Origin: Vermiculatibacterium agrestimuris
GTDB lineage: Bacteria > Bacillota > Clostridia > Oscillospirales > Oscillospiraceae
DNA length: 32,000 nucleotides
NCBI RefSeq assembly: GCF_943193085.1
Contig: NZ_CALPCU010000023.1
Location: forward strand, 2,442-34,441
Direction: 5' to 3'
This document shows positions 7,946-27,035 of the stretch, in pieces. Position numbers and translations under genes: made by a program. The notes beneath the pieces are model-generated. The model was given only the letters and a program-made list of their open reading frames with translations, ran no database searches and was not told the DNA's origin. Each line of letters starts with the position of its first letter. Position 1 is the stretch's first letter.

Positions 7946-7960
7946 CGTCTTCACCTCCAC

Positions 7961-7989: not shown

Positions 7990-8005
7990 AATTTACAGGA
8001 TTTTT

Positions 8006-8758: not shown

Positions 8759-8759
8759 G

Positions 8760-10019: not shown

Positions 10020-10037
10020 GAGGGCAATAACAAAAAA

Positions 10038-10074
10038 GCACCCAGAAATCAAGGGATTTCTGGGTGCTTTTTTT
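10038..10074. terminator. Bidirectional intrinsic terminator
   Basis: A perfect 13-bp stem (GCACCCAGAAATC aagg GATTTCTGGGTGC) flanked by A6 and T7. It terminates the + strand operon and, on the minus strand, the tRNA. Confidence 0.85.
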
Positions 10075-10108
10075 GGAGCTGCTGGCCGGACTTGAACCGG
10101 CGACCTGC
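10074..10108 (-). tRNA. 3' fragment (positions 42-76 including CCA) of a disrupted tRNA-Thr(CGU) gene; left junction of the inserted element
   Basis: The reverse complement is GCAGGTCGCCGGTTCAAGTCCGGCCAGCAGCTCCA: T-arm plus 3' acceptor CAGCAGC plus CCA. It pairs with the 5' acceptor GCTGCTG found at 23761-23767. Confidence 0.85.
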
Positions 10109-10111
10109 GGT

Positions 10112-10124
10112 TGTCCGTAAGGGG
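10112..10124. repeat. Left terminal inverted repeat (attP-derived arm) TGTCCGTAAGGGG
   Basis: Perfect reverse complement of 23701-23713. It starts 3 nt inside the shared core. Confidence 0.8.
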
Positions 10125-10235
10125 GCAAACTGAGACGATGCCTAATGGCACGAATCTATCATCATGGGGTTAATGGTTTTTGATGGGCAGAGCTAAAATA
10201 AATATAAGATTCGTCCCCAATTGTACATTATGTGA

Positions 10236-10724
10236 TTAACACACTACAGAGTCGAAAATTTTAATGAGTTCTAAAACATCAAAGTAATAGTTTTTGATAT
10301 CTATGAACGTAGCTGTCGGAGCTTTTCCATGGGCAAAATCATGTCTATTCTGAACTAACGAATTAGAGGCATCAATAATCTTTTGCTTATTTGGGTGTTT
10401 GTTGACCGCACATTTGAAACTTTTTTGCCACTGCTCATCGAACTTGCCCAATAGGCCACACATCATCTCATACTTTGCACTCATAGAACCTTTTCTGACG
10501 GCTGTATCGAGATATGTATCAATTCGACTGTCTGATAATTTGGAAAAGTAATCAACAACAATCGAACGATACACAAACTCAGCCGTTCCAGAGGCTTTTA
10601 TAAGAGCATAGCAGGTGAGGTATCGTATTTGCTTGGACAAAGGAGGCATATCGGCAATAAGCGCATCAATATCATTGATTTCTGTAGTGCACTCGTCAAT
10701 TAAATCTTGCAATTCACTCTTCAT
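10236..10724 (-). CDS. HEPN-domain protein (RiboL-PSP / MAE_28990-like), predicted RNase effector
   Basis: ATG at 10724 preceded by GGAG, overlapping the upstream gene's end; the track's 10751 start is a GTG. An Rx4H HEPN motif lies near the C-terminus (LVQNRHDFAHG). The protein looks all-helical and the gene is AT-rich. Confidence 0.65.
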   Translation of the reverse strand: MKSELQDLIDECTTEINDIDALIADMPPLSKQIRYLTCYALIKASGTAEFVYRSIVVDYFSKLSDSRIDTYLDTAVRKGSMSAKYEMMCGLLGKFDEQWQKSFKCAVNKHPNKQKIIDASNSLVQNRHDFAHGKAPTATFIDIKNYYFDVLELIKIFDSVVC

Positions 10725-11841
10725 TGATGTCAACTCCAAAGAGAATTGCACCAGCCAACTGTATTCTTTTCCTTATGTTATCGATATCAGTTGTTCGTTT
10801 ACTAACTGCTTCCTTAAACTGTTCATTGCTCAATAGAGTTTGATGTTGCTCCAATGACACTGCGCTAATATCATGCCCTTTTTTGCTTATTAGAAAAGCT
10901 GACACCATGATTGCATCAAAGATAGCTGGATGAAATTTCTTGGAAAATCCATTTTTTGCGAGATTTCTAAAGGCCTTTTCTCCAACTGAACTGTTGACTG
11001 CTTCTACCGTGTGCAAAAACTCAGATCTAAATTTGCTTATATCCTCCGCAGTATCATTTCTGTGATTATCCATAAAGGAGTTCAGTGACTTTTTGAGAGA
11101 AATCTGTTTGGCATCACTCTTTAAGATGTCTTCTGTTTTCATTACAAAGAATCTGAGAATATACTCGAGATCTCGCATTCTGCTGTCTGGTACAACTGCT
11201 CCAAACAGTTTTCTCCATGTTGTGTTTTCGTTGAGTTCGAAAAGCAAGGAATTAAATGTTCCTTGATAGACGCAATTGCGAATTTCCTGAGGAGTGAGGC
11301 TGCGGCCGCTTGTATTAATGCGTTCAAAAATTTGATATAAACTCGTATCATCGTTTTCGGGTTTCTTCTGTTCAAAAACAATTGCATGGATTGTGGTACT
11401 CCGAATTTTTCGTTGGTCATCGGTAGACAATTCAACAAAGGATTTGTTGCGCCACCTTTGGTTTATTTTCTCAGAATTAGATAGTTTAAAAGCTTTTCCA
11501 TCTGCAGAAAAAACACCTCTCTTAACATAATCATAAACGGTCATGATCCTTTGATATCCGTCTACAATCAGCTTCTGACTTCCGGACTGGGCAAGAAAAA
11601 TACTTGGGACTGGAAGCCCCAGTAGGATTGACTCAATAAATCTGCTGGCCTCTGTTTTGTCCCATACATATTTGCGCTGCAGTTCGGGTTTCAGTAATTC
11701 ATCGTCTTCATACATTGAAATAAGCTCTCTAAAAGAAAGATCTGCGCCCCAAGATGAGATGTTAAACAGAGAATCATCTGAGTAATCATCTTCGATTTCG
11801 GACTTAATTTCTTCGATATTGGGATTTTCCTTTGCTTCCAT
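10714..11841 (-). CDS. DUF262 (ParB-like / GmrSD N-terminal-type) domain protein without a DUF1524 nuclease domain
   Basis: Motifs ..LQRKYVWDK..ASRFIESILLGLPVPSIFL...LIVDGYQRI (DGQQR variant) and ..FERINTSGRSLTPQEIRN... ATG 11841 has an AAGGAG RBS. The upstream in-frame extension to 12042 lacks an RBS. Confidence 0.75.
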   Translation of the reverse strand: MEAKENPNIEEIKSEIEDDYSDDSLFNISSWGADLSFRELISMYEDDELLKPELQRKYVWDKTEASRFIESILLGLPVPSIFLAQSGSQKLIVDGYQRIMTVYDYVKRGVFSADGKAFKLSNSEKINQRWRNKSFVELSTDDQRKIRSTTIHAIVFEQKKPENDDTSLYQIFERINTSGRSLTPQEIRNCVYQGTFNSLLFELNENTTWRKLFGAVVPDSRMRDLEYILRFFVMKTEDILKSDAKQISLKKSLNSFMDNHRNDTAEDISKFRSEFLHTVEAVNSSVGEKAFRNLAKNGFSKKFHPAIFDAIMVSAFLISKKGHDISAVSLEQHQTLLSNEQFKEAVSKRTTDIDNIRKRIQLAGAILFGVDINEE

Positions 11842-12214
11842 TGTTGAATATCTCCTTACAAAATCATCTGTTGAAAAGTGCTCTCCTTCAATTTGAATAA
11901 TCCTGGTTTCCTTCATGCCAATCCATTTAGGAATACAAACACAAATTATGGCAGTTTTTTTCCAAAGCAGAATTTCATATATATCTGTTGCCCTATCTTT
12001 GCGAATAGGTGTAATACCATGTACCAAGTATTTCATATGCAATATGCACCTCTCTTTGAGTCAGCATACGCATATAAGAGGCTGTTTATCCTCGCTGTTC
12101 CAAAACTATGAAGTACAAAAGTTTGTTTGCTTCGGTCTCTTTTTGAAATGACAAGCCGTAATAGCCACTTATGACCGGATTATCAAAATCGGCTCCATAA
12201 TGTTTTCATTACCG

Positions 12215-12550: not shown

Positions 12551-12885
12551 CAGGCTGCGCTCTCTCGGCCAGCGTAGTGAAGCAGTACATCCTCCACGGA
12601 AAAGTCATTTTCGTCCTCGCCGTCATCGCTGTTGTACCACAGCCACTTTGCCACATAGGGCATGAACCAATCCTTGTCTTTCAAAGTGGTGATAAGCCGT
12701 CCAAAGATGCCGTAGTCCTTGGCGGCGCCAGTGCCATAGTAGCAGACAGTGCCATCGGACTGGGTTTCCTTGCGGAAACCATATTTCCCAAAGGCGTTGT
12801 CCACAGAGGACTGAATCGTCTGGGGCGTATATTTTTGTGCTTGTTCAATGCGCTCAATGTCCAATTTCATTTCCAGTTTCAGCAT
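12550..12885 (-). CDS. Hypothetical 111-aa acidic-tailed protein, partner of the VapD-like gene (candidate antitoxin, VapX position)
   Basis: ATG 12885 with an AGGAGG RBS 8 nt upstream. Its stop overlaps the vapD-like start. I recognise no family. Confidence 0.6.
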   Translation of the reverse strand: MLKLEMKLDIERIEQAQKYTPQTIQSSVDNAFGKYGFRKETQSDGTVCYYGTGAAKDYGIFGRLITTLKDKDWFMPYVAKWLWYNSDDGEDENDFSVEDVLLHYAGRESAA

Positions 12886-12964
12886 ATCACAGCACCTCCT
12901 GAAAAGATTGACCACCCTTATTATATCAGGGTGGTCGAAATAGTGCAATCTTTTTCATGCTTTA

Positions 12965-14638
12965 TTAGGTAATAATCGCCATAGGCTTAGCATCATCTGA
13001 ACTTTCGGCAGGGGAGATGGCCCCATTCAGCATGACCGCCGGGTCGATGTACCCAATGAACTTATAGTAAATATCTACCTGCTGAGTGATGGCACCGTCA
13101 TCGCTGCGTTCCTTTTCGTGCACTACGATCTTTTCAATAAGCTCATTGAGGATGCGGGCGTTGAGTTCTTTGAGGTCGGTATATTGCCTGACCAGCGGGA
13201 GGAAAGCCTCCACATCGTCATAGATCTGTTCGCTGGCGGAGATGGCTTCCGCCAGCGTTTTTTGTGCTTCCAGAAGGGCAACCCGCTCCTGCTCGTAGCT
13301 GGGCATCATGGACTGATACCGCTCCTCGGTGATCTTTTCCAGCGCCCGGTCCTCATAGAGCTTATTGGAGACCTTCTCCAACTCGCCCAGGCGTTTCTCC
13401 ACTCGTTTGAGCTCCCTCCTTTGTCGCTCGGTGTTCTGCTGTTGCTGGGCTTGCTTGGCGGCCAGGAGCATCTGGGCGTAGTCCAGCTCCGCCACGGTTG
13501 CCCACTGGGCGTTGCGGCGGATATCCTCCAGCACCAGGGTGTTGAGCGTTTTCCAGCCGATGGCGTGGGAGGTGCAACGGCTTTTGCCGTAGTTTTTGTA
13601 GACCCAGCAGGAGAAGCCGGTGTAGCGGCCTCGTTTGCCGTCATAGCTAAGATTGAGGGAAGAGCCGCAGTCGGCGCACTTGACCAGCCCGGCGAAGGGC
13701 TGGACCTCATGGCTGCCGTTCTCCCGCCGTCGGGCTTTCATCATCTGGTGGACGGTGTCCCACAGCTCCTGGGTGACCAGGGGTTCATGGGTGTTCTCGG
13801 TGATGATCCATTCCTCCTCCGGGGCGGGGATGCGAGTCTTGTCAAAGAAACCTTTGAGTTTGGTGCGCCCGAACACGAGCTGCCCCAGGTAGACCCGGTT
13901 ATTGAGGATGGCCCGGATGGAGGTGGCGTGCCAATCATAGGGCTTACGCCAGTACTCGCTTTTGAAGTAGTCGGGGTTATTCTGGTTGAAGTATGCCTGG
14001 GGATTGAGGATGCCACGCTCCCGGAGAATCTTGGTCATCCGCACATAGCCCACGCCCTCGGCGAACATCTGGAAGATGTCCCGCACCACATCGGCGGCGG
14101 GTGGGTCTACGATGAGGTGATGCCGGTCGGCGGGGTCTTTGACATAGCCGAAGGGGGCGTGGCTGCCCAGATACATTCCGGCCTTGGCTCTGGCCCGATG
14201 GGCGGCCTTGGTCTTACTGGAAGCCTGCCGGGCATAGAAGGAGTTGATCACATTGGTAAAGGGGAGCACCAGGCTGTCCAGGCCCTTTTGGGAGTCGATG
14301 TTCTCCGCCAGAGAGAGGAACCGGATGCCCTTTTCCTCAAAGTAGTGCTCGATGTACATCCCCATCTCGGCGTACTCTCGACCGAACCGGGAGAGGTCTT
14401 TGACGATAACCGTGTTGATGCGCCCAGTCTCGATGTCGTCGATCATCCGCTTGAAGTCAGGCCGCTCGAAGTTGGTGCCGCTCCAGCCATCGTCACAGTA
14501 GTACCCACCGATGGTGATGTGCTGTTCCTCACAGTATTGGGTGAGGATGGCCTTTTGGGTCTGGATGCTCCCGGATTCCCCAACGCTGCCGTCGTCCTGA
14601 CTGAGCCGACAGTAGATGGCGGCAATTTCTTTGCTCAT
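12965..14638 (-). CDS. Large serine recombinase (TnpX/TndX-like, with a DUF4368-like C-terminus)
   Basis: ATG 14638 with an AGGAGG RBS. N-terminal resolvase catalytic domain (AAIYCRLSQDD...), recombinase domain, Cys cluster (CADCGSSL...FSCWVYKNYGKSRCTSH), a coiled coil, and a C-terminal ..ELNARILNELIEKIVVHE.. motif. Confidence 0.9.
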   Translation of the reverse strand: MSKEIAAIYCRLSQDDGSVGESGSIQTQKAILTQYCEEQHITIGGYYCDDGWSGTNFERPDFKRMIDDIETGRINTVIVKDLSRFGREYAEMGMYIEHYFEEKGIRFLSLAENIDSQKGLDSLVLPFTNVINSFYARQASSKTKAAHRARAKAGMYLGSHAPFGYVKDPADRHHLIVDPPAADVVRDIFQMFAEGVGYVRMTKILRERGILNPQAYFNQNNPDYFKSEYWRKPYDWHATSIRAILNNRVYLGQLVFGRTKLKGFFDKTRIPAPEEEWIITENTHEPLVTQELWDTVHQMMKARRRENGSHEVQPFAGLVKCADCGSSLNLSYDGKRGRYTGFSCWVYKNYGKSRCTSHAIGWKTLNTLVLEDIRRNAQWATVAELDYAQMLLAAKQAQQQQNTERQRRELKRVEKRLGELEKVSNKLYEDRALEKITEERYQSMMPSYEQERVALLEAQKTLAEAISASEQIYDDVEAFLPLVRQYTDLKELNARILNELIEKIVVHEKERSDDGAITQQVDIYYKFIGYIDPAVMLNGAISPAESSDDAKPMAIIT

Positions 14639-14670
14639 GCTTGATTCCTCCTTAGCCACAGACAATACCC

Positions 14671-14874
14671 CTAATCCTTGCCCAAAGCTATACCAGAACC
14701 CACCAAAGAATCCTTCGTAACTTTGGGCGGAATAGACGAGGTGAGGGAAGCGGTGATGAGGTCGCCCATCTTCTGAAACACATCCCTGCTGCCGCCGTAG
14801 TAGCTGGTGGTGATATACCGAACGCCGCGGATGGTCTGGCTGTGGGCGATCATGCTGTCCTCGAATAGAAACAT
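14671..14874 (-). CDS. Hypothetical 67-aa protein immediately upstream of the recombinase
   Basis: AGGAGG RBS 9 nt upstream of the ATG. GC3-rich codons. It ends 33 nt before the recombinase start. Confidence 0.5.
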   Translation of the reverse strand: MFLFEDSMIAHSQTIRGVRYITTSYYGGSRDVFQKMGDLITASLTSSIPPKVTKDSLVGSGIALGKD

Positions 14875-14889
14875 CGGCTGGTACCTCCT

Positions 14890-15003
14890 TTACATTTTCT
14901 GCTGCCAGGTTTGCTGTTCTTCGTGGTCATCTGCCTTGTGGCCCATAGAAATTTTCTTCTTCCGCTCTTGGGAGAGGGCCTTGCGGTCGTCGTAGCCAGT
15001 CAT
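14890..15003 (-). CDS. Possible 37-aa basic/acidic peptide, or the genuine C-terminal tail of the relaxase (same frame)
   Basis: ATG at 15003 overlaps the TGA of the nested ORF. GC3 bias returns to this frame (MTGYDDRKALSQERKKKISMGHKADDHEEQQTWQQKM). Confidence 0.3.
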   Translation of the reverse strand: MTGYDDRKALSQERKKKISMGHKADDHEEQQTWQQKM

Positions 15004-16170
15004 GGATGCGGCTGGAGCAAGGCGCTGGCTACGCTCCAGAGCATGGCCCAGAGCGGCCACAGAGCGTACAATCCCACCAGGATCGGGATGGCCCACAGCC
15101 ATGCCAGACTGGGTGTGGGCAGGTGTAGCTTCGGCAGAGAAGGCCGCCAGCCTTTCTTCCTCCCAGCCTGTTCCTGTCGCTCCAGCAGCTGATGGATCGT
15201 TGCCGCTTCCTTGGTCAGCGCCTCCGCCTGGGCATGCACTGCCTGCATGGTAGCGAGGCTGTTCTTCAATATGTCGGACTGGCTCGCCGTCAGACGGTAC
15301 AGGGTGCTGAGGATCGCCAACAGGTCGTTCCATTCCTCCCCCATAGGATGTCGCTCTGGCGGCAAGTTCCTCTCCTTCAATTCTTCGATGGAGCATTTCT
15401 GCTCGGATCCTAAACTCACGCTCCATGACCTCCTTTCGGTATTTGTCCTCGTGGAGACGGTTATCCCGGCACTTCTTCCCTTTGGGAGTAGTATAGGTGA
15501 TGGCCTGCCGGGTGGGTTCCCACCGCACCTGGTAGCCCCGCTGTTCCATCTCCCGGATGAAGTCCTCCCGGCGTTTAGCCCTCCTCATACACAGGTCGAT
15601 GGTGTTCATGAGCTGGAATTTCCAACTCTCACCCCGGACCGCCGAGCGGTACTCACCGGGGCGCATCTTCTTATCCTGGACGTGCCTTTTGGGTGACTCC
15701 AGTACTTGCAGACCGTGGGTGCGACATATCTGGTCGCTGATCTGGCGCTGCCGTTGGAGGTCCGCGGCGTTTTGGTGCAGCTTGCGGCCATCCTTCCAGC
15801 TGACGCTGTTGACGATGAGGTGGTTGTGGAGGTGGTCTGCGTCCACATGGGTGGCCACCACCACTTCAAACTCCGGGAACAGCCGTTGGGCCAACTCCAG
15901 CCCGATGGTGTGGACTTCTTCTGGGGTGACGTCTTCCGCTGGAGAGAAGGACTGGACGAACTGATAGAACATCCTGCCATCGGATTTCTGGAACCGCCGC
16001 TTGGTGGTCATCATCTCATCGTAGGCAGACTGGGCAACGCAGTTGTGACCAGTCACCAGTCGGTGGTCTTTCCATGCGGTTTTCTTCTCCTGCGCCGCAT
16101 AGGCCAGCACCCGATGTAGCGAGCTACCGCTTTGAGCCTTGTTTTTGATCGCGGTGAAGGTTGCCATCAT
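14890..16170 (-). CDS. Relaxase/mobilization nuclease (MobA/VirD2 family); the relaxase domain is the first ~290 aa and the C-terminal ~140 codons have a non-coding-like signature
   Basis: 3-His motif HVDADHLHNHLIVNSV and an N-terminal Tyr region. AGGAGG RBS, with an ATGA overlap onto the mobC stop. Downstream of about 15420 the GC3 bias moves to another frame (see the nested ORF). Confidence 0.85.
   Translation of the reverse strand: MMATFTAIKNKAQSGSSLHRVLAYAAQEKKTAWKDHRLVTGHNCVAQSAYDEMMTTKRRFQKSDGRMFYQFVQSFSPAEDVTPEEVHTIGLELAQRLFPEFEVVVATHVDADHLHNHLIVNSVSWKDGRKLHQNAADLQRQRQISDQICRTHGLQVLESPKRHVQDKKMRPGEYRSAVRGESWKFQLMNTIDLCMRRAKRREDFIREMEQRGYQVRWEPTRQAITYTTPKGKKCRDNRLHEDKYRKEVMEREFRIRAEMLHRRIEGEELAARATSYGGGMERPVGDPQHPVPSDGEPVRHIEEQPRYHAGSACPGGGADQGSGNDPSAAGATGTGWEEERLAAFSAEATPAHTQSGMAVGHPDPGGIVRSVAALGHALERSQRLAPAASMTGYDDRKALSQERKKKISMGHKADDHEEQQTWQQKM
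15000..15419 (-). CDS. Nested out-of-frame gene inside the relaxase ORF: 139-aa coiled-coil protein with a C-terminal Trp-rich TM helix (MobB-like position)
   Basis: GTG start with AAGGAGG 9 nt upstream. In sampled stretches GC3 is about 17 of 20 codons in this frame versus about 9 of 20 in the relaxase frame. The sequence is protein-like (..EEWNDLLAILSTLYRLTASQSDILKNSLATMQAVHAQAEAL.., LAWLWAIPILVGLYALWPLWAMLW). Its stop overlaps the next ATG (ATGA). Confidence 0.6.
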   Translation of the reverse strand: MSLGSEQKCSIEELKERNLPPERHPMGEEWNDLLAILSTLYRLTASQSDILKNSLATMQAVHAQAEALTKEAATIHQLLERQEQAGRKKGWRPSLPKLHLPTPSLAWLWAIPILVGLYALWPLWAMLWSVASALLQPHP

Positions 16171-16487
16171 CGCACCTCCTTGGAAAGTTGGCTGATCTGC
16201 TGGTAGAGCTTGGCATAGCCATCCACCAGGTCATCACCTCGGAGGATTTTCAACTTGCCCATGTTGGCCAGAGTGGTGAGCTGGTTTAGGTTCCGCCCCT
16301 GAGCCTTCAACTCGCTCAGCACAGCATCCAGGCCATCCACCCGGACGATCTCTTTGCCCAACGCACAGACGGTCATGTAGTCGGTGACCGTCATCCCGGC
16401 ACCCCGGGCCAGGTGTTGGACGAGACTTTTCATGGTGGGCGTCATTCGGATGGTGACGATCTCGGTCTTGCGTTTTTCTCTGCGCAT
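16167..16487 (-). CDS. mobC: MobC-family relaxosome accessory protein
   Basis: ATG 16487 after GGGGGAGAAAGGA. RHH-like N-terminus (..IVTIRMTPTMKSLVQHLA..) and a MobC motif (..LKAQGRNLNQLTTLAN..). The stop overlaps the relaxase start. Confidence 0.8.
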   Translation of the reverse strand: MRREKRKTEIVTIRMTPTMKSLVQHLARGAGMTVTDYMTVCALGKEIVRVDGLDAVLSELKAQGRNLNQLTTLANMGKLKILRGDDLVDGYAKLYQQISQLSKEVR

Positions 16488-16561
16488 GTTTTTCCTTTCT
16501 CCCCCTCTGGGGGCTGGGGCACGGGGCAGCGCCCCGACCGCATCCGGCGTATAGCCGGGGG

Positions 16562-17619
16562 CTATGCTTGCCTCACCCAAGGGTGAGCGTCCGCATCCCT
16601 GACTTGAGTCCCAGGGGCGATAGGGTCAACGGTTCCGGGGGCTTGTTCAGCGTCACTTTCGGCACGGTGGAGCTCGATGAGCCGCTTGCCGTTACTCCTG
16701 CGGACGATGGCGGTGATGCCTTGTTCCGTAAGTGCCGCAGCGCTTTGGAGGATCTTCCGGGAGACGGTCTTGGGCGTGACGCCCTCCGCACCGTCAGGGT
16801 CGATACGCTTGGCCAACTCGGTGGGAGTGCCGATCCAGCTTGCTTTATTCCGCAGAAATTCAGAGAGGAGAAACACGACCCGCTCCTCCAGAAGCAGTGG
16901 CTGAGTGTAGGAGTCCGATACCAGCTCCCATACGTTTTCGGCGTTCCGCTCCAGCCCCATCTCCCGGTACTCAATGTCCCGGCCTACACAGTAGAGGGTG
17001 GCTCTGCGGCTGCCCCGCCGATCCTCCACCAGCGTGAAGCTGGAATCCACCGCGCCGCTGATGGCGGTGGTGCCGGAGATGCGGCTGAACACATCCTCGG
17101 CGGGTTCCTTGCGTAGATGATGGATGAGCAGGACGGCGATGCCGTGAGCGTCGGCCAGCCGCTTGAGGACAGAGAGGTCTCGGTAGTCATTGGCATAGAG
17201 TTGGTTCCCCGGATCATCTGGAGGGTGTCGATGATGACCAGGACGGTGTCCGGGTGTTCTGCAAGGAAGGCTTTGAGTTGCTGTTCCAGTCCACGGCCCA
17301 GCAGAGCGGCCTCGGTGGAGAAGTGAACGGTGGGCGGCGCGTCCTCGGTAATGTCCAGCAGCCGGTTTTGGATACGGAGCTGGGAGTCCTCCAGACAGAG
17401 ATAGAGGGTAGTGCCCTGCTTCGCTGGCCTGCCCCAGACGCTTTCGCCTTTGGCGACCTGTACGCTGAGCCACAGGGCCAGCCAGGACTTGCCCACCTTG
17501 GGCGACCCGGCCAGGATGTGGAGTCCCTGGGAGAGCAGCGTGTCCACGATAAAGGGCAGCGGCACGAAGGGCTTGGCCATCAGTGTGACGCCGTCAATGG
17601 TGTTGAGCTTTTGATTCAA
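16562..17619 (-). pseudogene. RepA-like AAA (AAA_25-type) ATPase with a C-terminal winged-helix-like region, interrupted by a 1-nt frameshift
   Basis: TTG 17619 with an AGGAGG RBS 7 nt upstream. Walker A is GSPKVGKS. The N-terminal part (frame of ORF 16984..17763) and the C-terminal part (frame of ORF 16562..17473) join at the G4 run (plus-strand CCCC, 17207-17210). One extra G gives ..IIDTLQMIRGNQLYANDYRDL... Total length is 1058 nt, that is 3n+2. Confidence 0.75.
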
Positions 17620-17643
17620 GAGAAAACCTCCTTTGCGATGTGG

Positions 17644-17672
17644 TTGGCATTGGCCTCTGCCTGTGTTAGAAT
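17644..17672 (+). promoter_or_regulatory. Strong sigma-70-type promoter for the + strand operon of the element
   Basis: TTGGCA, a 17-nt spacer, then TGtTAGAAT (extended -10). It lies about 85 nt upstream of the 17757 ATG. Confidence 0.5.
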
Positions 17673-17756
17673 ACAGAGGAGGAATGCTTTTTGAAATCTG
17701 AAAGTGATGTTGGCGATTTTTCAAAAGTTCGCTTGCAGACAAAAAGGAGGGACGAT

Positions 17757-18767
17757 ATGGCATCGGAATATGGGCTGTATCTTTCTCTGCTCCCGGATGG
17801 GCAGATAAAAAGAGACCTCACCGGGTCGGCCGGCAAGGTCCCCTTGGAGGATACAACGATCCAGGATGAGTTGATTTTATTTTCTGAGTTGAACTTTGAG
17901 CCGTATGCTCTGGTGGTAGACCTGGTCCGCAATTGTGCGGGGAGCATTATGGTGCAGGATGAAGGTCATTATGGAGAGGTCGACATGAAGGAGTTTCAGT
18001 TCATGGCGGACACCGTGATCGACCTGGTGACCACCATGGAGAAAGAGTCTCCTCTGTATGGCACGCTGCTTCGCACCCAGATCGAAGATCAGATCACGAC
18101 GGACGATGGAACTGCCATGTATCCGATTCGCACCGGGCAGGAGCTGGTTGCTCTGTTGACCGGAGTGATGCAGTTTCAGTTCGTGGTCAATGAGGTGCTG
18201 CATGACCTTTGCGAGAAGACACCGCTTGAACCAAAGAAGTACGAGGGCCTGTGGGAGATGCCGGTGACGGAGGTCTTAACACTGGAGGGGGATGGTTTGA
18301 CTACACGATACCATTTCCGTTCGGCGGTGGACTACTACCATTTTCTTCTTCTGCATTTTGTGGCGGACAAGCCAAATGTGTCTCTGTGCCAGTGCTGCGG
18401 CAGATATTTTATTCCCAAGACGAAAAAGAAAACGCTGTACTGTGACCGTATTCTGAAGGATGGCAAGACTTGTAAGGAGTGGGGGCCGATCCTGAAGCAC
18501 AAGCTGGCTGCTCGGAGGAACGAGGTCATCGAGGCTTTTGACCGGGCCAAGCGGAAAATGTACAAGCGCTACGAGCGGGCGGCAAATAAGATCAACCAGA
18601 AGCCCTCGGAGAAGGATCTGAGCTACGCTGAATACTATGAGTGGCTGGACAGGGCAACCAAGGCGAGAGATGATTATTTGGAGGGGAAAATCACAGTGGA
18701 AGACTGTTTGCGACAAATTGGGGAAGAAAAAGATGAAGATGGAAACTTTATCGAACTTATGGTATAA
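17757..18767 (+). CDS. Hypothetical 336-aa protein with a Cys cluster (CQCCGRYF...YCDR...TCKEW) and a basic helical C-terminus
   Basis: AAAAGGAGGG RBS 6 nt upstream of the ATG. Composition (about 55% GC in a sampled line) resembles the element core. It is divergent from the ATPase/mob operon. Confidence 0.7.
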   Translation: MASEYGLYLSLLPDGQIKRDLTGSAGKVPLEDTTIQDELILFSELNFEPYALVVDLVRNCAGSIMVQDEGHYGEVDMKEFQFMADTVIDLVTTMEKESPLYGTLLRTQIEDQITTDDGTAMYPIRTGQELVALLTGVMQFQFVVNEVLHDLCEKTPLEPKKYEGLWEMPVTEVLTLEGDGLTTRYHFRSAVDYYHFLLLHFVADKPNVSLCQCCGRYFIPKTKKKTLYCDRILKDGKTCKEWGPILKHKLAARRNEVIEAFDRAKRKMYKRYERAANKINQKPSEKDLSYAEYYEWLDRATKARDDYLEGKITVEDCLRQIGEEKDEDGNFIELMV

Positions 18768-18856
18768 TAGCTTGGCAAGTAGAATTACAAAATATGAACC
18801 TGCACCATTGATGCGGAGGGTCAAATCTTTGCAATGAAAAATTGGGGGACGAGTTG

Positions 18857-21800: not shown

Positions 21801-23473
21801 CACCAGATGAAGAGATTGGCGATGTGACGGATTTTGAATCCATCCTTGATATGTGCTCCACCACTATGCCGCAAATGCGCTTGCGGTGGCATTATCGTAG
21901 CCGGTATGAGCAGCTGATTGCTTTCTCTAACCGCAATTTTTATGACGGGGATTTGGTTACATTTCCCTCCGCAACAGCAGATACACATGGCGTGGGTGTA
22001 GACTATTACCATGTGGATGGAATATTTGACCGCAAAAGTCATACAAACCGAAAGGAAGCAGAATTTGTTGTTGATCTCATTTTTAAGCATATTCAAGAGT
22101 ATCCGGGCAGAAGCCTTGGCGTAGTGGCGTTCAGCGTAGCACAGCAGGAACTGATCGATAACCTCCTGTCAAAGCGACGTCAAGAAAATCCGGATATGGA
22201 GGGCTTTTTCAAAGGAGAGCGCAAGGAACCATTTTTTATCAAAAACCTTGAAACGGTGCAGGGCGATGAACGGGATACTATCATATTCAGCGTTGCATAT
22301 GGCATTGACTCTCAAGGGCGCCTGCTCCATAATTTTGGCCCTCTGAATCGGGTCGGCGGTGAACGCCGACTGAATGTTGCGGTCACCCGAGCAAAGTGCA
22401 ATGTGCAGTTGGTATCCTCCATGCATTATACGGACATTGACCTGAGCCGTACATCGTCAACTGGAGTTACATTGTTGCGGGCGTATCTGGACTATGCCGA
22501 GAATGGCACTATTGCCTTGGAGCGAGCGGTCTCAATCAGCCCTTTTGAACAATTTGATTCCGAGTTTGAAATGGAAGTTTGCGATTTCCTGCGGGACAAT
22601 GGATTTGAAGTAGATATGCAGGTCGGTTGTTCTGGATTCCGCATAGATCTTGGTTTACGTCGGTCAGGAAGTTCGGATTATGTCTTGGCGATTGAATGTG
22701 ATGGAGCTACCTATCATTCATCAAAAAATGCCCGTGATCGGGATCGCCTCCGTCAAGAGATCTTGGAGCGTATGGGCTGGAAATTTTACCGCATTTGGTC
22801 CACGGACTGGTTCAAAAACAAGAGAGTGGAAAAGGAGCGCTTGTTGGGGGCGGCAAAACAGGCGGTAAAGGCTCCCACCTCAGTAGTCCAGCCTATGCTG
22901 GATATAGAAGAATCCGCCGCTGAGATTTTTGAGACCGTATCAACTGCCAATGATTTTAAGTTTCAACAATACAAAATAGCCGATATCCCCGCTCTATCCA
23001 AACGGTATTTACCAAATAACTTTAAGGGTATGGTGAAGGCCATTTTGGAAATAGAGGCCCCTCTTTCAGAGGATCTGCTTTTAAAGCGCACGGTTATATA
23101 CTTTGGCCGAGAGAAAGTGACGAGCGTTGTTCAACGGACCTACGAGCAACTAATGCAAGGGTGTCGTCGGGATGGGATCATTCGTCGGGATGGCTTTTTA
23201 TATCTGGAGGGGCAGAGTGAGTGCCCGTTCCGAACACCTTCTAACGATTTGAAGCGTGACATCAAAGATATCTGCTTGGAGGAGTTAGCTTCTGGGCTGC
23301 TCGAACTGCTTCGTCAAAATGTAACGGCAGATAAGACTGGGCTCTATCACGCCTTTGCGGGGCAGTGCGGTTGCAGTCGGGTTGGCAAAGCTATTAATGA
23401 GCGGTTTGACGATGCACTTGGACTGTTAAAGGACAAAATAAATGTGGACGGAATTATGCTTTCGATTAAATAG
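18857..23473 (+). CDS. DUF4011 / SF1 (Upf1/DNA2-like) helicase / Vsr-MTES_1575-like endonuclease / DUF3320 giant protein (Hhe-like candidate defence gene)
   Basis: 1538 aa. N-terminal DUF4011-like region (..LLDTGKRNNLINF..). Walker A GPPGTGKSQTI and motif II VIFDEASQ. Also WHYRSR, VQGDERD and RLNVAVTRAK. A C-terminal nuclease-like block follows (..GFRIDLGL...YVLAIECDGATYHSSKNARDRDRLRQEILERMGWKFYRIWSTDW..), then a DUF3320-like tail. A sampled line gives about 42% GC. Confidence 0.85.
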   Translation: MDNKKLDRWAELLLDTGKRNNLINFRDTKASTVEVVAPAPDTIWEKANGSGDLEVYDPGLITFDDEDEQRSPEDGERETKLSREDYLQTYSPMLKKASQMLLYSLGPSPIRTLQNIDKKAQSAIEETGVNVAYMAFGFIHWKESNSSQYEYRAPILLAPVQFSRETAIAPYHIVVSSDEIAVNPTFSYRMNAEHGIRLPEYEDEGLDSYLDKVAELVGKLGWAVTRECKIGLFSFLKMNMYRDLKDHAAAILKNRNIRTLLGEQVERDNAESSFDEEALDYGGALIQLHSVVDADSSQIEAIEMAKSGVSFVLQGPPGTGKSQTITNIIAECLNDGKKVLFVSEKQAALTVVYDKLRQAGLNDFCLELHSYKANRKGVIAELCRTLRLDKTTVSTKADEEVTTKEKAQRQLDLYAEELHKQRPGIERSLYQLYEEHSACRHVPELEFQVPAIEDKGANYLTSAIEFLEQYVDYLPSVGYDYHKNPWYGYKNQDTSYQTTIQVKSDLQESIKFFQTLILLSDELATKYGVALEGIDSARYWRDFLSFVVTSDIITPAFLKDPNLVDALRRMAALSAEIHEIQTSLDAVYGQDIYQIDGAEYCKKLTTQFGSFFSRLFNQEYRQTVANLQVCKRSDGKLSYQDAVALTRKLSEYQEKTQAFEALEVSAKGGLGPGYTGLQGDWAHVEEQLDQMGAIINGKHDYGRLAELSLSEFQAEQPTFENLAKRLSACLDLFGDWYDRLAAAFDNEIFDLRTVQDQEALAKLEACHCDADKIDNWCRFRTLLAQLRDVGLLSFVDYVISQNYEAKNMVTAYKRAFLHQWIDCIIATTPALADFNRVIQDRAVVTFSQKDTTQFDISKAQIRQKLSAQRPSLDMVSSGSAVSILLREGEKKRRQKNIRTLLAETGELIQIIKPCFMMSPLSVSTFLDPDIIHFDTVIFDEASQIFPQDAVGAIYRAKQLIVVGDSKQMPPSNFFSATVEDDSPDEEIGDVTDFESILDMCSTTMPQMRLRWHYRSRYEQLIAFSNRNFYDGDLVTFPSATADTHGVGVDYYHVDGIFDRKSHTNRKEAEFVVDLIFKHIQEYPGRSLGVVAFSVAQQELIDNLLSKRRQENPDMEGFFKGERKEPFFIKNLETVQGDERDTIIFSVAYGIDSQGRLLHNFGPLNRVGGERRLNVAVTRAKCNVQLVSSMHYTDIDLSRTSSTGVTLLRAYLDYAENGTIALERAVSISPFEQFDSEFEMEVCDFLRDNGFEVDMQVGCSGFRIDLGLRRSGSSDYVLAIECDGATYHSSKNARDRDRLRQEILERMGWKFYRIWSTDWFKNKRVEKERLLGAAKQAVKAPTSVVQPMLDIEESAAEIFETVSTANDFKFQQYKIADIPALSKRYLPNNFKGMVKAILEIEAPLSEDLLLKRTVIYFGREKVTSVVQRTYEQLMQGCRRDGIIRRDGFLYLEGQSECPFRTPSNDLKRDIKDICLEELASGLLELLRQNVTADKTGLYHAFAGQCGCSRVGKAINERFDDALGLLKDKINVDGIMLSIK

Positions 23474-23542
23474 AAAATTGTAAAATCCCTTTTTCTCCTT
23501 GGGGAGAATATGATTTACCATCGTTGAGTTTTCCAAAACAAA

Positions 23543-23589
23543 GCATTCCCGCTTTTCGAGGATATGAAAAGCGGGAATGCTCTATTTTT
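23543..23589 (+). terminator. Intrinsic terminator after the helicase gene
   Basis: A 14-bp stem (GCATTCCCGCTTTT ... AAAAGCGGGAATGC) followed by tctaTTTTT. Confidence 0.8.
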
Positions 23590-23664
23590 GGAGCTACTGG
23601 CCGGACTTGAACCGGCGACCTGCTGATTACGAATCAGCTGCTCTACCAACTGAGCCACAGTAGC
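23589..23664 (-). tRNA. Complete tRNA-Thr (anticodon CGU), element-borne
   Basis: The reverse complement is GCTACTG TG GCTC AGTTGGTA GAGC A GCTGA TTCGTAA TCAGC AGGTC GCCGG TTCAAGT CCGGC CAGTAGC T CCA. This is a 76-nt perfect cloverleaf with an encoded CCA. Confidence 0.9.
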
Positions 23665-23700
23665 GTATAAAATTGTTGAATTTGCGGAGTGGAGGAATGT

Positions 23701-23713
23701 CCCCTTACGGACA
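23701..23713. repeat. Right terminal inverted repeat (attP-derived arm) CCCCTTACGGACA
   Basis: Perfect reverse complement of 10112-10124. It ends 6 nt inside the shared core. Confidence 0.8.
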
Positions 23714-23719
23714 GCCACT

Positions 23720-23767
23720 GACCTGCTGATTACGAATCAGCTGCTCTACCAACTGAGCCACAGCAGC
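23720..23767 (-). tRNA. 5' fragment (positions 1-48) of the disrupted host tRNA-Thr(CGU) gene; right junction
   Basis: The reverse complement is GCTGCTGTGGCTCAGTTGGTAGAGCAGCTGATTCGTAATCAGCAGGTC. It is identical to the element tRNA except position 4, and it then breaks off into element sequence. Confidence 0.85.
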
Positions 23768-23823
23768 ATATGAAATTATTTCGCCTTAAACGGAGCTGCT
23801 CTACAGCTGCTTTGCAACTCAGA

Positions 23824-23852
23824 AGTCTATCATATTTTGAAGCCCCCGTCAA
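23824..23852 (-). promoter_or_regulatory. Candidate host promoter of the (split) tRNA-Thr gene
   Basis: Minus strand reads TTGACG, a 17-nt spacer, then TAGACT, about 55 nt upstream of tRNA position 1. Confidence 0.3.
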
Positions 23853-23871
23853 TCCCGAAAAGGAGGCTTTT

Positions 23872-24477
23872 TTATTCCTGTCGCCGGGGAAAGACCAGGA
23901 GCAGGCCGGGCAGAACGGCCCCTGCGGTAAGAGTAAGAGGGACGACAGCGGGGAAGAGTAAGACTTGAGCACCCAGCAGTCCGAGAGCCAAAACGACGGC
24001 CAAAACACTTTTGGGCAGCGTGGAGAGAAAGTCCAGCCAGGCGCACCGAAGGGAGGCCTCCGGCCAGGTGAGGGCGGGGAAGAGGTGAAGTCCCACCCCC
24101 CAAAGGAGGATCAGCCCAGCAAATCCAAGCCCCGACAGGGCGGTGAAGATCCCGCCCAGGTCGAGGTAGTACCAGACGGCGGTGGCCAAAAGGATGTTCA
24201 GGCTCAAAAACAGAAGGCCCCAGGCCATTTTGGACAGAAACCGACTGCGGAAGGTAGAGCAATAGGCGCGCAGCAACTTGACCGGCGCGTCCTTTGCCAG
24301 CTGCTCCATCACATATCCCATGGCCGACAGGGCGGGCCCAAGGGTGAAAATGGGCAGACAGGTGAGCAGGAAAACAAAATTCAGTCCCACCCAATCGGGA
24401 AAGTTCTGCGCCAGGACAGTGAGATACCAGCGAAAGCCCTGACGGCTTCCGGGGGCCTTCTCATGCTTGTTTGCCAT
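23872..24477 (-). CDS. YesL/DUF624-family integral membrane protein
   Basis: ATG 24477 with an AAGGAGG RBS. Multi-TM protein (..FVFLLTCLPIFTLGPALSAM..). It sits in the typical position next to a sugar ABC operon. Confidence 0.7.
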   Translation of the reverse strand: MANKHEKAPGSRQGFRWYLTVLAQNFPDWVGLNFVFLLTCLPIFTLGPALSAMGYVMEQLAKDAPVKLLRAYCSTFRSRFLSKMAWGLLFLSLNILLATAVWYYLDLGGIFTALSGLGFAGLILLWGVGLHLFPALTWPEASLRCAWLDFLSTLPKSVLAVVLALGLLGAQVLLFPAVVPLTLTAGAVLPGLLLVFPRRQE

Positions 24478-24531
24478 GTCGCCCGCCTCCTTGAGATCCC
24501 GGAGCTGAAAGCCCTGGAAAGAATAAAACCA

Positions 24532-24545
24532 TTGTAACGTTTCCA
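24532..24545. promoter_or_regulatory. Imperfect LacI-family/cre-like operator upstream of yesL
   Basis: TTGTAACGTTTCCA matches the perfect palindrome at 24698-24711 at 12 of 14 positions. Confidence 0.45.
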
Positions 24546-24653
24546 GCTTCAAAAGGCAAGGGGACAGCGGGAGAATCTTTCGTGATATTTGACAATTTTG
24601 CAGGCTGGTTTTTCATAAAGCCTACAAATTTGTGTGATATGGCCCAAAAATCC

Positions 24654-24682
24654 TTGCCTTCCTTGGCCGGATGTTGTATAGT
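24654..24682 (+). promoter_or_regulatory. Promoter of the ABC transporter operon
   Basis: TTGCCT, a 17-nt spacer, then TATAGT. The operator palindrome starts 15 nt downstream of the -10. Confidence 0.5.
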
Positions 24683-24696
24683 ATGAATCAGAAAAG

Positions 24697-24712
24697 CTGG
24701 AAACGTTTCCAG
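24697..24712. promoter_or_regulatory. Perfect 16-bp palindromic LacI-family/cre-like operator
   Basis: CTGGAAACGTTTCCAG is self-complementary and CG-centred (TGNAANCGNTTNCA type). It lies between the -10 and the RBS of the binding-protein gene. Confidence 0.6.
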
Positions 24713-24761
24713 AAAATTCGACCGAAAGCACATCACATACATTTTGAAGGAGGAACACACA

Positions 24762-26060
24762 ATGAAAAAGAGTTGGCTCGCACTGGCGCTCACCGGCGCC
24801 ATGACCCTCGGCCTTCTGGCCGGCTGCGGCGGCGGAGATAAGCCCGCCGTCGGAAGCGGCGACGGCAAGGGCAGCGTCTACTATCTGAACTTCAAGCCCG
24901 AGCAGGACAAGGACTGGCAGGCCCTGGCCCAGACCTACACCGAGAAGACCGGTGTGCCCGTCACCGTGGTCACTGCCGCCTCCGGCCAGTACGAGACCAC
25001 CCTGATGGCCGAGATCGGCAAGAGCGAGGCCCCCACCATGTTCCAGGTCAACGGCCCCGTGGGTCTGAACAACTGGAAGGATTACTGCTACGACCTCACC
25101 GGCTCCAAGGTGCTGGGCGAGCTCACCAGCGAGGACTTCACCCTGAAAAACGGCGACGAGGTGGCCGGCATTGGTTACGTCATCGAGACCTATGGCCTCA
25201 TTACCAACACCAAGCTGCTGGAGCAGGCGGGCTACAAGACCTCCGACATCCAGAGTTTTGCCGATCTGAAGAAGGTGGCCGAGGACATCACCGCCCGGAA
25301 GGATGAGCTGGGCTTTGCCGCCTTTACCTCCGCCGGTATGGACGGCTCCTCTGACTGGCGCTTTAAGACCCACCTGGCCAACCTGCCCATCTATTTTGAG
25401 TACCAGGCCGACGGCATCGGCTCCACCGAGGCCATCAAGGGCTCCTTCCTGGATAACTACCGCCAGATGTGGGATCTCTATATCAACAACGCCACCTGCG
25501 ATCCCAAGGATCTGTCCGCCAAGACCGGCGATGACGCCGTGGCCGAGTTCGTGAACGGCGAGGCTGTCTTCTACCAGAACGGCACCTGGGCCTACGGCGA
25601 CGTGAAGAGCCTGGGCGACGACAGCCTGGCCATGATCCCCCTGTACGTGGGCGCCGGCGACGAGGCCAAGCAGGGCCTGTGCACCGGCACCGAGAACTAC
25701 TGGTGCGTCAACAAGAACGCCAAGGCCGAGGACATTCAGGCCACCCTGGACTTCATGTACTGGTGCGTCACCTCCGACGAGGGCACCACCTCCATGGCCA
25801 GCGATATGGGCTTTGTCATCCCCTTCAAGGCCGCCAAGGAGTCGGAGAACCTCTTTGTCAAGCAGGACGCCGAGCTCACCGCCGCCGGCAAGACTCCCGT
25901 GTCCTGGAACTTCACCACCATGCCCTCCGAGGAGTGGAAGAATGTTCTGGGCTCCGCCCTGACGGCTTACGCCGCCGACCAGACCGATGCCAACTGGGCC
26001 GCCGTGGTCTCCGCCTTCGTGGACAACTGGGCCGCCGAGTACAAGCTGGCCAACGGCTGA
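24762..26060 (+). CDS. Sugar ABC transporter substrate-binding lipoprotein
   Basis: GAAGGAGGAA RBS. Lipobox signal peptide MKKSWLALALTGAMTLGLLAGC. Family-1 solute-binding-protein-like sequence. Confidence 0.88.
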   Translation: MKKSWLALALTGAMTLGLLAGCGGGDKPAVGSGDGKGSVYYLNFKPEQDKDWQALAQTYTEKTGVPVTVVTAASGQYETTLMAEIGKSEAPTMFQVNGPVGLNNWKDYCYDLTGSKVLGELTSEDFTLKNGDEVAGIGYVIETYGLITNTKLLEQAGYKTSDIQSFADLKKVAEDITARKDELGFAAFTSAGMDGSSDWRFKTHLANLPIYFEYQADGIGSTEAIKGSFLDNYRQMWDLYINNATCDPKDLSAKTGDDAVAEFVNGEAVFYQNGTWAYGDVKSLGDDSLAMIPLYVGAGDEAKQGLCTGTENYWCVNKNAKAEDIQATLDFMYWCVTSDEGTTSMASDMGFVIPFKAAKESENLFVKQDAELTAAGKTPVSWNFTTMPSEEWKNVLGSALTAYAADQTDANWAAVVSAFVDNWAAEYKLANG

Positions 26061-26093
26061 GCCCCTCGGGCACAAATCAAATAAAAAAGGAAA

Positions 26094-26121
26094 AGGGGCG
26101 GGCGTCTGCCCGCTCCTTTTT
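26094..26121 (+). terminator. Intra-operon intrinsic terminator/attenuator after the binding-protein gene
   Basis: AGGGGCGGGC gtct GCCCGCTCCT followed by TTTTT. Confidence 0.6.
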
Positions 26122-26183
26122 GAAAAGAGAGCCCTTCCCCCCCGGCGGGGGAGGAATTTGAGATATGGAGGTGGCTTACCGCT

Positions 26184-27035
26184 ATGGAACGAGCGCTGAA
26201 ACGCTGGTCTCCCTTGTTTATCCTGCCCACATTCCTGGCTTTTGCCATCGGCTTCATCTACCCCTTTGTTGAGGGCGCGTACCTGTCCCTGTGCCAGTTC
26301 ACCACCGTGCGGGACGCCAAGTTCATAGGCTTCGGCAACTATATCCGGGCTTTCGGCGACAGCCAGTTTCTGGATTCCTTCTGGTTTACCGTAGCCTTTA
26401 CAGTGGTGTCGGTGGTGCTCATCAACGTCATCGCCTTCCTTTTCGCGCTGATGCTGACGAAGAACCTGAAGGGAACCAACATCTTCCGCACCGTGTTCTT
26501 TATGCCCAACCTCATCGGCGGCATCGTGCTGGGCTATATCTGGCAGATCCTCATCAACTGTGTGCTGTCCCTTGTGGGTAAGCCCCTGCTGGCGCTGAAC
26601 GCCACGGCGGGCTACTGGGGCCTCATCATCCTCATGTGCTGGCAGCAGATCGGCTATATGATGATCATCTATATCGCCGGGCTCCAGGCGGTGCCCGACG
26701 ACCTGACCGAGGCGGCCCAGATCGACGGGGCTACCCCCCTTCAGACCCTGCTGCGGGTGAAGCTGCCTATGGTGATGCCCTCCATCACCATCTGCACCTT
26801 CCTCACCCTCACCAACGGCTTCAAGCTCTTCGACCAGAACCTGGCCCTCACCGCCGGCGAGCCCAACCACGCCACCGAGATGCTGGCCTACAATATCTAT
26901 AATACCTTCTACGCCCGCTCCGGCCCCCAGTGGAAGGGCATGGGCCAGGCCAAAGCAGTTCTGTTCTGTATTCTGGTAGTGGCCATCTCCATGCTCCAGC
27001 TCAAGGCCACCCGTTCCCGGGAGGTGCAGCAGTAA
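26184..27035 (+). CDS. Sugar ABC transporter permease (MalF/UgpA-like)
   Basis: 283 aa and multi-TM. EAA-loop region ..EAAQIDGATPLQTLLRVKLPM... Confidence 0.88.
   Translation: MERALKRWSPLFILPTFLAFAIGFIYPFVEGAYLSLCQFTTVRDAKFIGFGNYIRAFGDSQFLDSFWFTVAFTVVSVVLINVIAFLFALMLTKNLKGTNIFRTVFFMPNLIGGIVLGYIWQILINCVLSLVGKPLLALNATAGYWGLIILMCWQQIGYMMIIYIAGLQAVPDDLTEAAQIDGATPLQTLLRVKLPMVMPSITICTFLTLTNGFKLFDQNLALTAGEPNHATEMLAYNIYNTFYARSGPQWKGMGQAKAVLFCILVVAISMLQLKATRSREVQQ

Follow-up and report, generated by a model that had tools for sequence, protein, structure and literature searches.

How can a mobile element insert into the middle of a tRNA gene, rebuild that gene at neither junction, and leave its host with a complete copy? 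This question is raised by the 32,000-nt stretch of Vermiculatibacterium agrestimuris DNA analysed here (contig NZ_CALPCU010000023.1, positions 2,442 to 34,441; hereafter the window), in which an element of 13.6 kb (approximately 10109-23719) has split the host tRNA-Thr(CGU) gene and holds a complete tRNA-Thr(CGU) gene of its own. We found the same arrangement in well over a hundred related elements of gut Clostridia. The account that we favour, and consider likely, is that a TnpX-like recombinase splits tRNA-Thr(CGU), the element's whole copy compensates, the host promoter drives that copy, and the copy becomes a new landing site. The parts of the split gene and of its replacement are as follows, in window coordinates.

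10032..10073, minus strand: host tRNA terminator hairpin, an inverted repeat with a 19-bp perfect stem and then a T run
10074..10108, minus strand: orphan 3' part of the host tRNA-Thr(CGU) (variable loop, T arm, acceptor 3' strand, CCA), with C69; host half of attR
23535..23588, no strand assigned: hairpin terminator after the element tRNA (inverted repeat and terminator scan); bidirectional, also ends the helicase gene
23589..23664, minus strand: complete element tRNA-Thr(CGU), A4:U69 allele, CCA encoded, with an intact attB copy within
23665..23719, minus strand: 55-nt spacer from crossover to tRNA, holding the right-end recombinase-binding arm (P' arm, 23698-23716)
23720..23767, minus strand: orphan 5' half of the host tRNA-Thr(CGU), with G4; host half of attL, the core GCAGGTC with the crossover being 23720-23726

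The complete tRNA-Thr(cgt) was the sole tRNA detected by ARAGORN in the window. It scored 73.4 bits against Rfam RF00005 (E = 8e-15; gathering score 29) and forms a canonical cloverleaf with anticodon CGU, which was also given by the minimum free energy fold. Its 5' end (23664) and the junction 23719/23720 are 55 nt apart, and its orientation is that of the split gene, in agreement with the coordinates of an earlier sequence-only reading, which had placed a full tRNA-Thr(CGU) at this distance inside the right junction. The host 5' half (tRNA positions 1-48) and 3' part (positions 42-76) stand 13.6 kb apart, and the 7-bp core GCAGGTC is common to both junctions. Rejoined, the two pieces gave a perfect cloverleaf. 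A 20-nt T-arm probe matched two places only, the element tRNA and the host 3' part, while two matches were obtained in none of 100 shuffles. A hairpin homologous to the host terminator also follows the tRNA 3' part in two sister hosts (L158 and L164; related loci are denoted by such numbers throughout). When the reconstructed host tRNA was compared with the element copy, the sole differences were at position 4 (G versus A) and position 69 (C versus T/U). These form a single compensatory acceptor-stem pair, G4:C69 in the host and A4:U69 in the element, just as the same reading had described.

No intact tRNA was found across attL or attR with ARAGORN, and Rfam returned only a fragment without T arm at attL. 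Regeneration of the tyrosine-integrase type was rejected, as neither junction is spanned by an intact tRNA. Two tandem host tRNA-Thr genes were also rejected: the full copy lies between the halves of one gene, within inverted repeats and a block of low G+C. The fragment at attL corresponds to the orphan 5' half, which scored 39.3 bits in Rfam as a tRNA without T arm. Together with the first bases of the arm (CAGUGGC; 23713-23767) it can form a 7-bp acceptor-like stem, giving this tRNA-like fold. The pairing is probably a coincidence, because the arm sequence differs in relatives.

Imperfect inverted repeats with 19-nt arms (10109-10127 and 23698-23716, 89% complementary) mark the two ends of the element, whose G+C content is 38-58% against approximately 60% in the flanks. 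It holds a single recombinase. Two further features are needed here.

10109..10127, no strand assigned: left-end recombinase-binding arm (P arm of attR), imperfect inverted repeat of 23698-23716
12965..14665, minus strand: large serine recombinase, TnpX-like, 566 aa, with Pfam domains Resolvase, Recombinase, Zn_ribbon_recom and DUF4368

All four Pfam domains of the recombinase were detected (PF00239, E = 1.8e-29; PF07508, E = 1.7e-23; PF13408, E = 9e-11; PF14287, that is DUF4368, E = 8e-23), and its best match among solved structures was the TnpX catalytic domain 2mhc (E = 1.6e-27). The DUF4368 tail and this top structural match bear out the assignment to the TnpX/TndX type that had been made from the sequence. 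The low target specificity of TnpX and TndX was not seen in this family, since all recovered junctions lie at one position of tRNA-Thr(CGU), chromosomal or element-borne.

Comparison of the window with its relatives gave the order of sequences at each junction. At attL, the host sequence ending in CAGCAGGTC is followed by GCTGGTTGTnnnTAAGG. At attR, CCTTAnnnACAACC(AGC)GGTC is followed by the T arm, the acceptor 3' strand and CCA; in approximately 17 related loci an attR with the tRNA 3' part was recovered, adjoined by the motif CCTTAnnnACAACC. From attL and attR together, attP would be a palindrome around GGTC, with the arms CCCTTAC..ACAACC and GGTTGT..GTAAGGG flanking this core, while attB consists of the 3' strand of the anticodon stem, the variable loop and the 5' strand of the T stem. 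Judging from these sequences, the crossover must lie within GGUC of the variable loop (positions 45-48), and symmetry points to GT as the central dinucleotide. The att partners have a core of 7 bp in common in the window and one of 4-5 bp (GGTC) in relatives, a short identity of the kind expected for large serine recombinases. The element ends lack long direct repeats, the att sites being inverted-repeat arms around a very short identical core.

These features suggest how integration would proceed. The TnpX-like recombinase would join the palindromic attP, through its GGTC core, to attB inside tRNA-Thr(CGU). Because few identical bases are needed and the arms of attP differ from those of attB, the junction cannot rebuild the tRNA and two orphans remain. 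The loss would be compensated by the whole tRNA-Thr(CGU) gene which the element carries, with its own terminator, 55 nt inside attL. The transcript would be a long precursor (leader, orphan half, attL, spacer, tRNA) matured by RNase P. Finally, attB in the spare copy would serve as the next landing site for related elements, leading to arrays and junction scars.

Whether the host promoter could drive the spare copy depends on what lies upstream of it.

23824..23852, minus strand: candidate host tRNA promoter, TTGACG-17-TAGACT with an extended -10 TG; reads through the orphan half and attL to the element tRNA

This candidate, already proposed from the sequence as lying upstream of the element tRNA, was recovered on scanning 23400-24000, and nothing else on the tRNA strand there resembled a promoter. 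In L002, L003, L004, L009, L011 and L017 the sole promoter-like site is likewise upstream of the orphan half. Two scans detected no promoter-like motif within the 55-nt spacer of the window, nor was any found in the other spacers of its class (54-57 nt; window, L158, L106). Across spacers of 33-61 nt no extended -10 motif was seen, with one exception, TGATAAGGT in the recombinase-binding arm of a 59-nt spacer (L091), which looks like a chance match. As the spacer has no recognizable promoter, the element tRNA is most likely transcribed from the host tRNA promoter, and promoter capture appears to be the best reading for the window element. It is plausible that its tRNA is transcribed from the host promoter only when the element is integrated. 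A weak promoter-like site at the other end of the element (10255-10227) is at the level expected by chance. We infer that the spare copy is transcribed from the host promoter, is aminoacylated and benefits the fitness of the host.

The leader between host promoter and orphan 5' half (23768-23823) reads GTAGAGCAGCT...CCGTTTAAGG, then AATAATTTCATAT. Its motif alignment score was equalled by 5 of 500 shuffles. This is suggestive only of an older junction scar that has decayed and been internally deleted, leaving a D/anticodon stem, a recombinase arm and a spacer end.

We then asked how widely the spare tRNA is distributed. Scanning of a genome collection with the recombinase gave 37 loci (63-91% identical) in Oscillospiraceae, Flavonifractor, Intestinimonas, Oscillibacter, Lachnospiraceae and Anaerotignum. 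A tRNA-Thr(cgt) was found upstream of the recombinase and co-oriented with it in 14 of the 37. Each of the 11 attL junctions seen, one in the window and 10 in genome loci, has a full tRNA-Thr(CGU) 33-95 nt inside. A scan of metagenomes with the attL pattern covered at least 120 stretches and gave 129 matches, 13 of which were set aside as being near a contig end, leaving 116 informative ones. Among the matches listed, a tRNA-Thr(cgt) lies within 400 nt on the same strand in 105 of the 116, and 34 distinct tRNA sequences are represented, all with anticodon CGT. The survey of related elements for a tRNA beside the att arm, which had been proposed as a check, therefore came out in favour of the arrangement: the spare tRNA is a trait of the recombinase family.

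Of the 11 metagenomic exceptions, one is a chance match. In L085 the tRNA is truncated, in L114 it has been cleanly deleted while spacer and terminator are otherwise typical, and the other eight loci come from another host clade. In at least five of these eight, a promoter and a tRNA-Thr(cgt) were located 0.5-2.7 kb deeper inside, beyond a small cargo gene or additional junction scars, and a subfamily without tRNA was rejected on this ground. Arrays of this clade, whose tRNA begins GCCACTGTGGCTCAATGG, were seen in L096 (4047-4997), L109 (756-1349), L067, L136 and L094. They run from orphan half through recombinase arm, terminator hairpin, ArsC/Spx-like cargo gene and duplicated tRNA promoter to orphans or a working tRNA, so that here the promoter is duplicated along with the tRNA.

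Is the spare copy maintained as a tRNA? In 15 element tRNAs, 99.3% of stem positions hold standard pairs and 12 of 21 pairs show compensatory changes. The identity elements of E. coli threonyl-tRNA synthetase (ThrRS) are G1:C72, C2:G71, G35 and U36. All of them are present in the window copy and invariant in the 15 element copies, and the 4:69 change lies outside them. The orphan pieces behave differently. In the class with 33-nt spacers the orphan 5' half carries 16-19 differences, and the crossover-adjacent stretch ATTCGTAA..ACAGGTC alone is kept. In L031 (Anaerotignum lactatifermentans DSM 14214, 404-17640) the orphan 5' half has fallen to about half identity and the 3' part is mutated; the element tRNA and host promoter are intact despite the decay of both orphans. 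This locus, like L026 and L027, is an old resident element, and retention of the half-site alone in these three suggests that the ability to excise has been under selection. Upstream of the decayed orphans in L025-L027 and L031, strong extended -10 promoters are kept as well. Intact spare copies beside decayed orphans are what would be expected under selection on the element copy only, and the copy is thus predicted to function as a tRNA.

These observations bear on the possibility that the copy is a non-functional passenger, host DNA taken up by imprecise or alternative excision and not yet lost. In many cases the element copy indeed matches local or sister-host alleles exactly or almost exactly, in L004 and L017 the terminator is host-like as well, and derivatives without the copy exist. 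However, we regard this explanation as highly improbable: position and orientation are conserved across recombinases that are 63-92% identical, in Oscillospiraceae, Lachnospiraceae and Anaerotignum; the copy is intact where both orphan pieces have decayed, with host promoters kept upstream of them; and the many distinct tRNA sequences of the metagenome set all share one anticodon.

The origin of the window copy could be traced through the closest relatives, L158-L163, whose recombinase is 92% identical to that of the window. Their attL-spacer-tRNA module matches that of the window at 92% over 184 nt and the 5.75-kb core from DUF6076 gene to recombinase at 82%, while both cargo slots differ. 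The tRNA thus belongs to the element, as had been claimed, being part of a backbone shared with a relative of different cargo. On the attR side the L158 host flank is 92% identical to that of the window over 2.6 kb. The reconstructed split host tRNA of L158 is exactly the window element tRNA (A4:U69), and U69 was also found in hosts L164-L168, in which a flank protein is 95% identical. Since the element tRNA equals the chromosomal allele of a sister host, the allele arrived by horizontal transfer, and since G4:C69 and A4:U69 each occur in the split tRNA of a host, both were once working chromosomal genes. On this comparison the window host had G4:C69 before splitting and the element brought A4:U69 from a sister lineage, which supports the earlier view of a diverged functional homologue as opposed to a duplication artefact.

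Elsewhere in the family the element copy equals the halves of its own host in L004, L017 and 11 metagenomic cases and is very different from them in L002, L003 and L009. Element gene and captured host DNA are not exclusive descriptions, because the tRNA pool is exchanged between elements and chromosomes. We also noted that the promoter-side host flank of the window (23768-27000; DUF624, sugar ABC transporter) is unrelated to that of L158 (1-2350; Zip, Cob_adeno_trans, EutN). With one flank unrelated and the other 92% identical to L158, the locus appears to be a rearrangement hot spot.

The element tRNA contains a complete attB sequence, which brings in another explanation, namely that the tRNA is mainly a portable landing pad that lets elements pile up and hitch-hike, its tRNA function being incidental. 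Several findings fit this. In at least 10 metagenomic stretches (L042, L048, L074, L094, L096, L097, L105, L137, L141, L155) the working tRNA is preceded by repeated units made up of an orphan half, attL and a spacer, with three levels in L042 and L096; such serial junctions show that later elements land in the spare tRNA. What comes after attR in L014 is the inside of another element, beginning with a gene that in L004 stands behind the element tRNA (74% over 750 nt). L033 has a full tRNA without attL and a normal attR. In L032 (951-2238) a full tRNA-Thr(cgt) stands immediately downstream of a host promoter that has its homologue in L158 and is followed by a terminator, after which comes a recombinase gene without its first 216 codons; here a member of the family survives as a decayed remnant that is locked in place. 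L033 and L032 look like alternative-excision products of arrays, and these forms together with L014 and the serial junctions would be the outcome expected of alternative pairings of attL with attR in tandem arrays.

By analogy with other large serine recombinases, however, an attB would take up no more than approximately 40-50 bp centred on the variable loop. The cloverleaf is nevertheless maintained in full, acceptor and D arms far from the site included, with the pairing and compensatory changes described above for the 15 copies, while orphan halves decay everywhere outside the recombinase half-site. We therefore consider it unlikely that the tRNA is mainly a landing pad, although this role and that of tRNA replacement are not exclusive.

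Both roles are united in a broader proposal, that the tRNA-Thr(CGU) locus in gut Clostridia acts as a conveyor belt. Each element would destroy the resident gene and install its own copy under the resident promoter, the copy would be the next landing site, and alternative excisions would leave scars upstream or locked-in bodies downstream. We put this forward tentatively, as something that may be so but to which we give slightly less than even credence.

The remaining genes of the element show what it carries and how it might move.

10236..10751, minus strand: HEPN RiboL-PSP protein, cargo (Pfam, PADLOC); overlaps the DUF262 gene
10714..12042, minus strand: DUF262/GmrSD_N protein (NsnA / PD-T4-2_A-like), cargo (Pfam, PADLOC)
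14671..14874, minus strand: open reading frame (ORF) of 67 aa between relaxase and recombinase; position and size kept in relatives, same gene at L158 9765-9968
14890..16170, minus strand: MobA/VirD2-type relaxase (PF03432; Pfam)
16167..16580, minus strand: NikA/MobC-like accessory protein (Pfam), forming a mobilization module with the relaxase (together 14890..16580)
16562..17763, minus strand: AAA_25 (RepA/DnaB-like) backbone gene (Pfam), with a frameshift near 17198-17200
17691..18767, plus strand: DUF6076 protein (Pfam), conserved backbone, kept in L158-L163
18842..23473, plus strand: DUF4011 helicase, 1543 aa, with an MTES_1575 nuclease domain, cargo (Pfam; PADLOC candidate PDC-S37 / Hhe-like)

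The element has its own recombinase and a relaxase and lacks genes for a conjugation pore; among its ORFs scanned with Pfam no VirB4 or coupling-protein domain was found. By this gene content it is an integrative mobilizable element (IME) with a serine recombinase, and its mobilization is predicted. Indirect signs of mobility are the swapping of cargo on a common backbone and the presence of an identical recombinase protein at two host tRNA alleles (L158 and L163); as the host 3' part beside it in L163 is clearly different, recent transfer between hosts is indicated. The 67-aa ORF matched nothing in Pfam or PADLOC and is a candidate for a recombination directionality factor. When the intact 354-aa AAA_25 protein of L158 was used in tblastn, residues 1-140 matched in frame -3 and residues 145-354 in frame -2; the frameshift reflects either a defective element copy or an assembly error. 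Two small ORFs (111 and 132 aa, 12215-12948) between the DUF262 gene and the recombinase had no Pfam or PADLOC match.

Defence-type genes occupy both cargo slots (10236-12042 and 18842-23473), and the DUF262 and HEPN genes are probably a defence pair. Relatives hold other cargo in these slots: radical SAM, AAA_14, AMP-binding and small resolvase genes in L158, where the 1543-aa helicase gene is absent, and AbiH, DUF1016 and reverse transcriptase genes in L164. Many phages carry tRNAs to supply codons or to counter nucleases. With that precedent, and with an element packed with defence-type genes including a HEPN protein, one might suppose that the tRNA serves the element, decoding ACG for the cargo or replacing a tRNA hit by anticodon nucleases. 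The share of ACG among Thr codons is similar in element genes (31/193) and host genes (23/173), which leaves a role in codon supply unsupported. Moreover, neither role would predict that the isoacceptor is always the destroyed one and always lies beside attL. We find this explanation hardly credible, and return to an element that splits the tRNA gene and replaces it.

Several points weigh against that reading. Exact look-ups of the window recombinase (with two start codons) and of two flanking host proteins returned no record, and no unoccupied site was recovered for the window locus among flank homologues: the closest of these (95% identity) are occupied by another member of the recombinase family, and a species with an 81%-identity flank has no tRNA at the corresponding locus. 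Because no empty site was recovered, mobility of the window copy is deduced from its relatives, and because its AAA_25 gene is frameshifted, the window element may be impaired. Disruption of tRNA-Thr(CGU) may cost little, because in many bacteria ACG codons can also be decoded by tRNA-Thr(UGU), and E. coli can do without the CGU isoacceptor. The spare copy is possibly dispensable too in rare derivatives, having been lost in L114 and truncated in L085. Many spacers of 76-95 nt hold an internal promoter, for example TTGATA-17-TATAAT (with the -35 inside the recombinase-binding arm) or TGTGGTAAACT, so that dependence on the host promoter is not a rule of the family. In addition, no terminator was found between 10236 and 10127, and read-through from the DUF262-HEPN genes across attP would be possible in the circular form.

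How does this arrangement compare with known systems? SPbeta in spsM, skin in sigK and A118 in comK split a gene and bring no substitute; the loss is tolerated or excision acts as a switch. The window element resembles these and the streptococcal rumA elements in that a large serine recombinase cuts into a conserved gene at one defined site, needing minimal sequence identity there, and in that precise excision restores the gene, but unlike them it has a substitute copy built in. In SCCmec-type cassettes CcrAB acts at the 3' end of rlmH/orfX, and the element end re-supplies only the last few target bases. The ssrA-specific islands of Dehalococcoides also combine a serine recombinase with an RNA-gene target, according to the accessible part of their description (PMC3146451). 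As far as that part goes, these islands and SCCmec are like the window family in that a conserved target stays functional, the site is regenerated and cassettes occur in tandem; they differ in that their element end gives back just the last few bases at the end of the target, whereas the window element cuts in the middle of an RNA and supplies a full second gene. The Paracoccus phage vB_PamS_Pami6 has a serine recombinase with a tRNA-Met integration site (PMC6536676); the accessible part of that report mentions no spare tRNA beside the junction, and this is a phage from a different phylum.

Tyrosine-integrase islands and prophages in tRNA genes (Islander class) rebuild the tRNA at the junction (PMC4383910). 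The window family shares with the P4, P22, HP1 and L5 type an insertion inside a tRNA gene, a working copy left behind, a displaced fragment at one end and tandem arrays. In that type, however, attP holds the tRNA 3' segment and the gene is rebuilt across the junction with one orphan fragment, whereas here we see a large serine recombinase, two orphans and a separate whole gene with terminator 55 nt inside. Tn4451/Tn4453 (TnpX) and Tn5397 (TndX) have the same recombinase domain architecture including the DUF4368 tail, and Tn4451 is a mobilizable element too; TnpX/TndX elements have low target specificity and a 2-bp GA crossover (PMC5704250). The window family differs in being strict for the variable-loop region of tRNA-Thr(CGU), in its GGTC core and in carrying a spare gene. 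A 2017 IME review states that serine-recombinase elements disrupt dispensable genes (PMC5704250). A full-text literature search, most subscription journals lying outside its reach, gave no description of an element that uses a serine recombinase, splits a tRNA and brings a complete substitute for it, and within this scope the earlier remark that the arrangement is undescribed for TnpX/TndX-type elements holds. Taken singly, the recombinase, the relaxase and the tRNA are ordinary. What is apparently new is their combination and what follows from it: whole-gene substitution, capture of a promoter and serial replacement.

Breaking and replacing would be a third way to keep a target working, next to the rebuilding done by tyrosine integrases and the disruption of dispensable genes by known serine elements, and whole replacement would be a logical answer to the constraint that attP arms cannot equal attB arms. 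In practical terms, a recombinase with attB in a conserved tRNA and a built-in complementing gene offers a landing-pad design for gut anaerobes that are hard to manipulate. The family, which shuttles defence genes, is common among gut Clostridia (Oscillospiraceae, Flavonifractor, Intestinimonas, Lachnospiraceae, Anaerotignum), and it would explain why many contigs from gut metagenomes have tRNA fragments arrayed upstream of tRNA-Thr(CGU). It would also provide a concrete mechanism for the horizontal turnover of a core translation gene. If the locus does act as a conveyor belt, then in spacer classes without a promoter of their own its capture of the host promoter would leave one copy, and no more, active with the element in or out, and the chromosomal tRNA-Thr(CGU) of many species would be a gene delivered by mobile elements and serially replaced.

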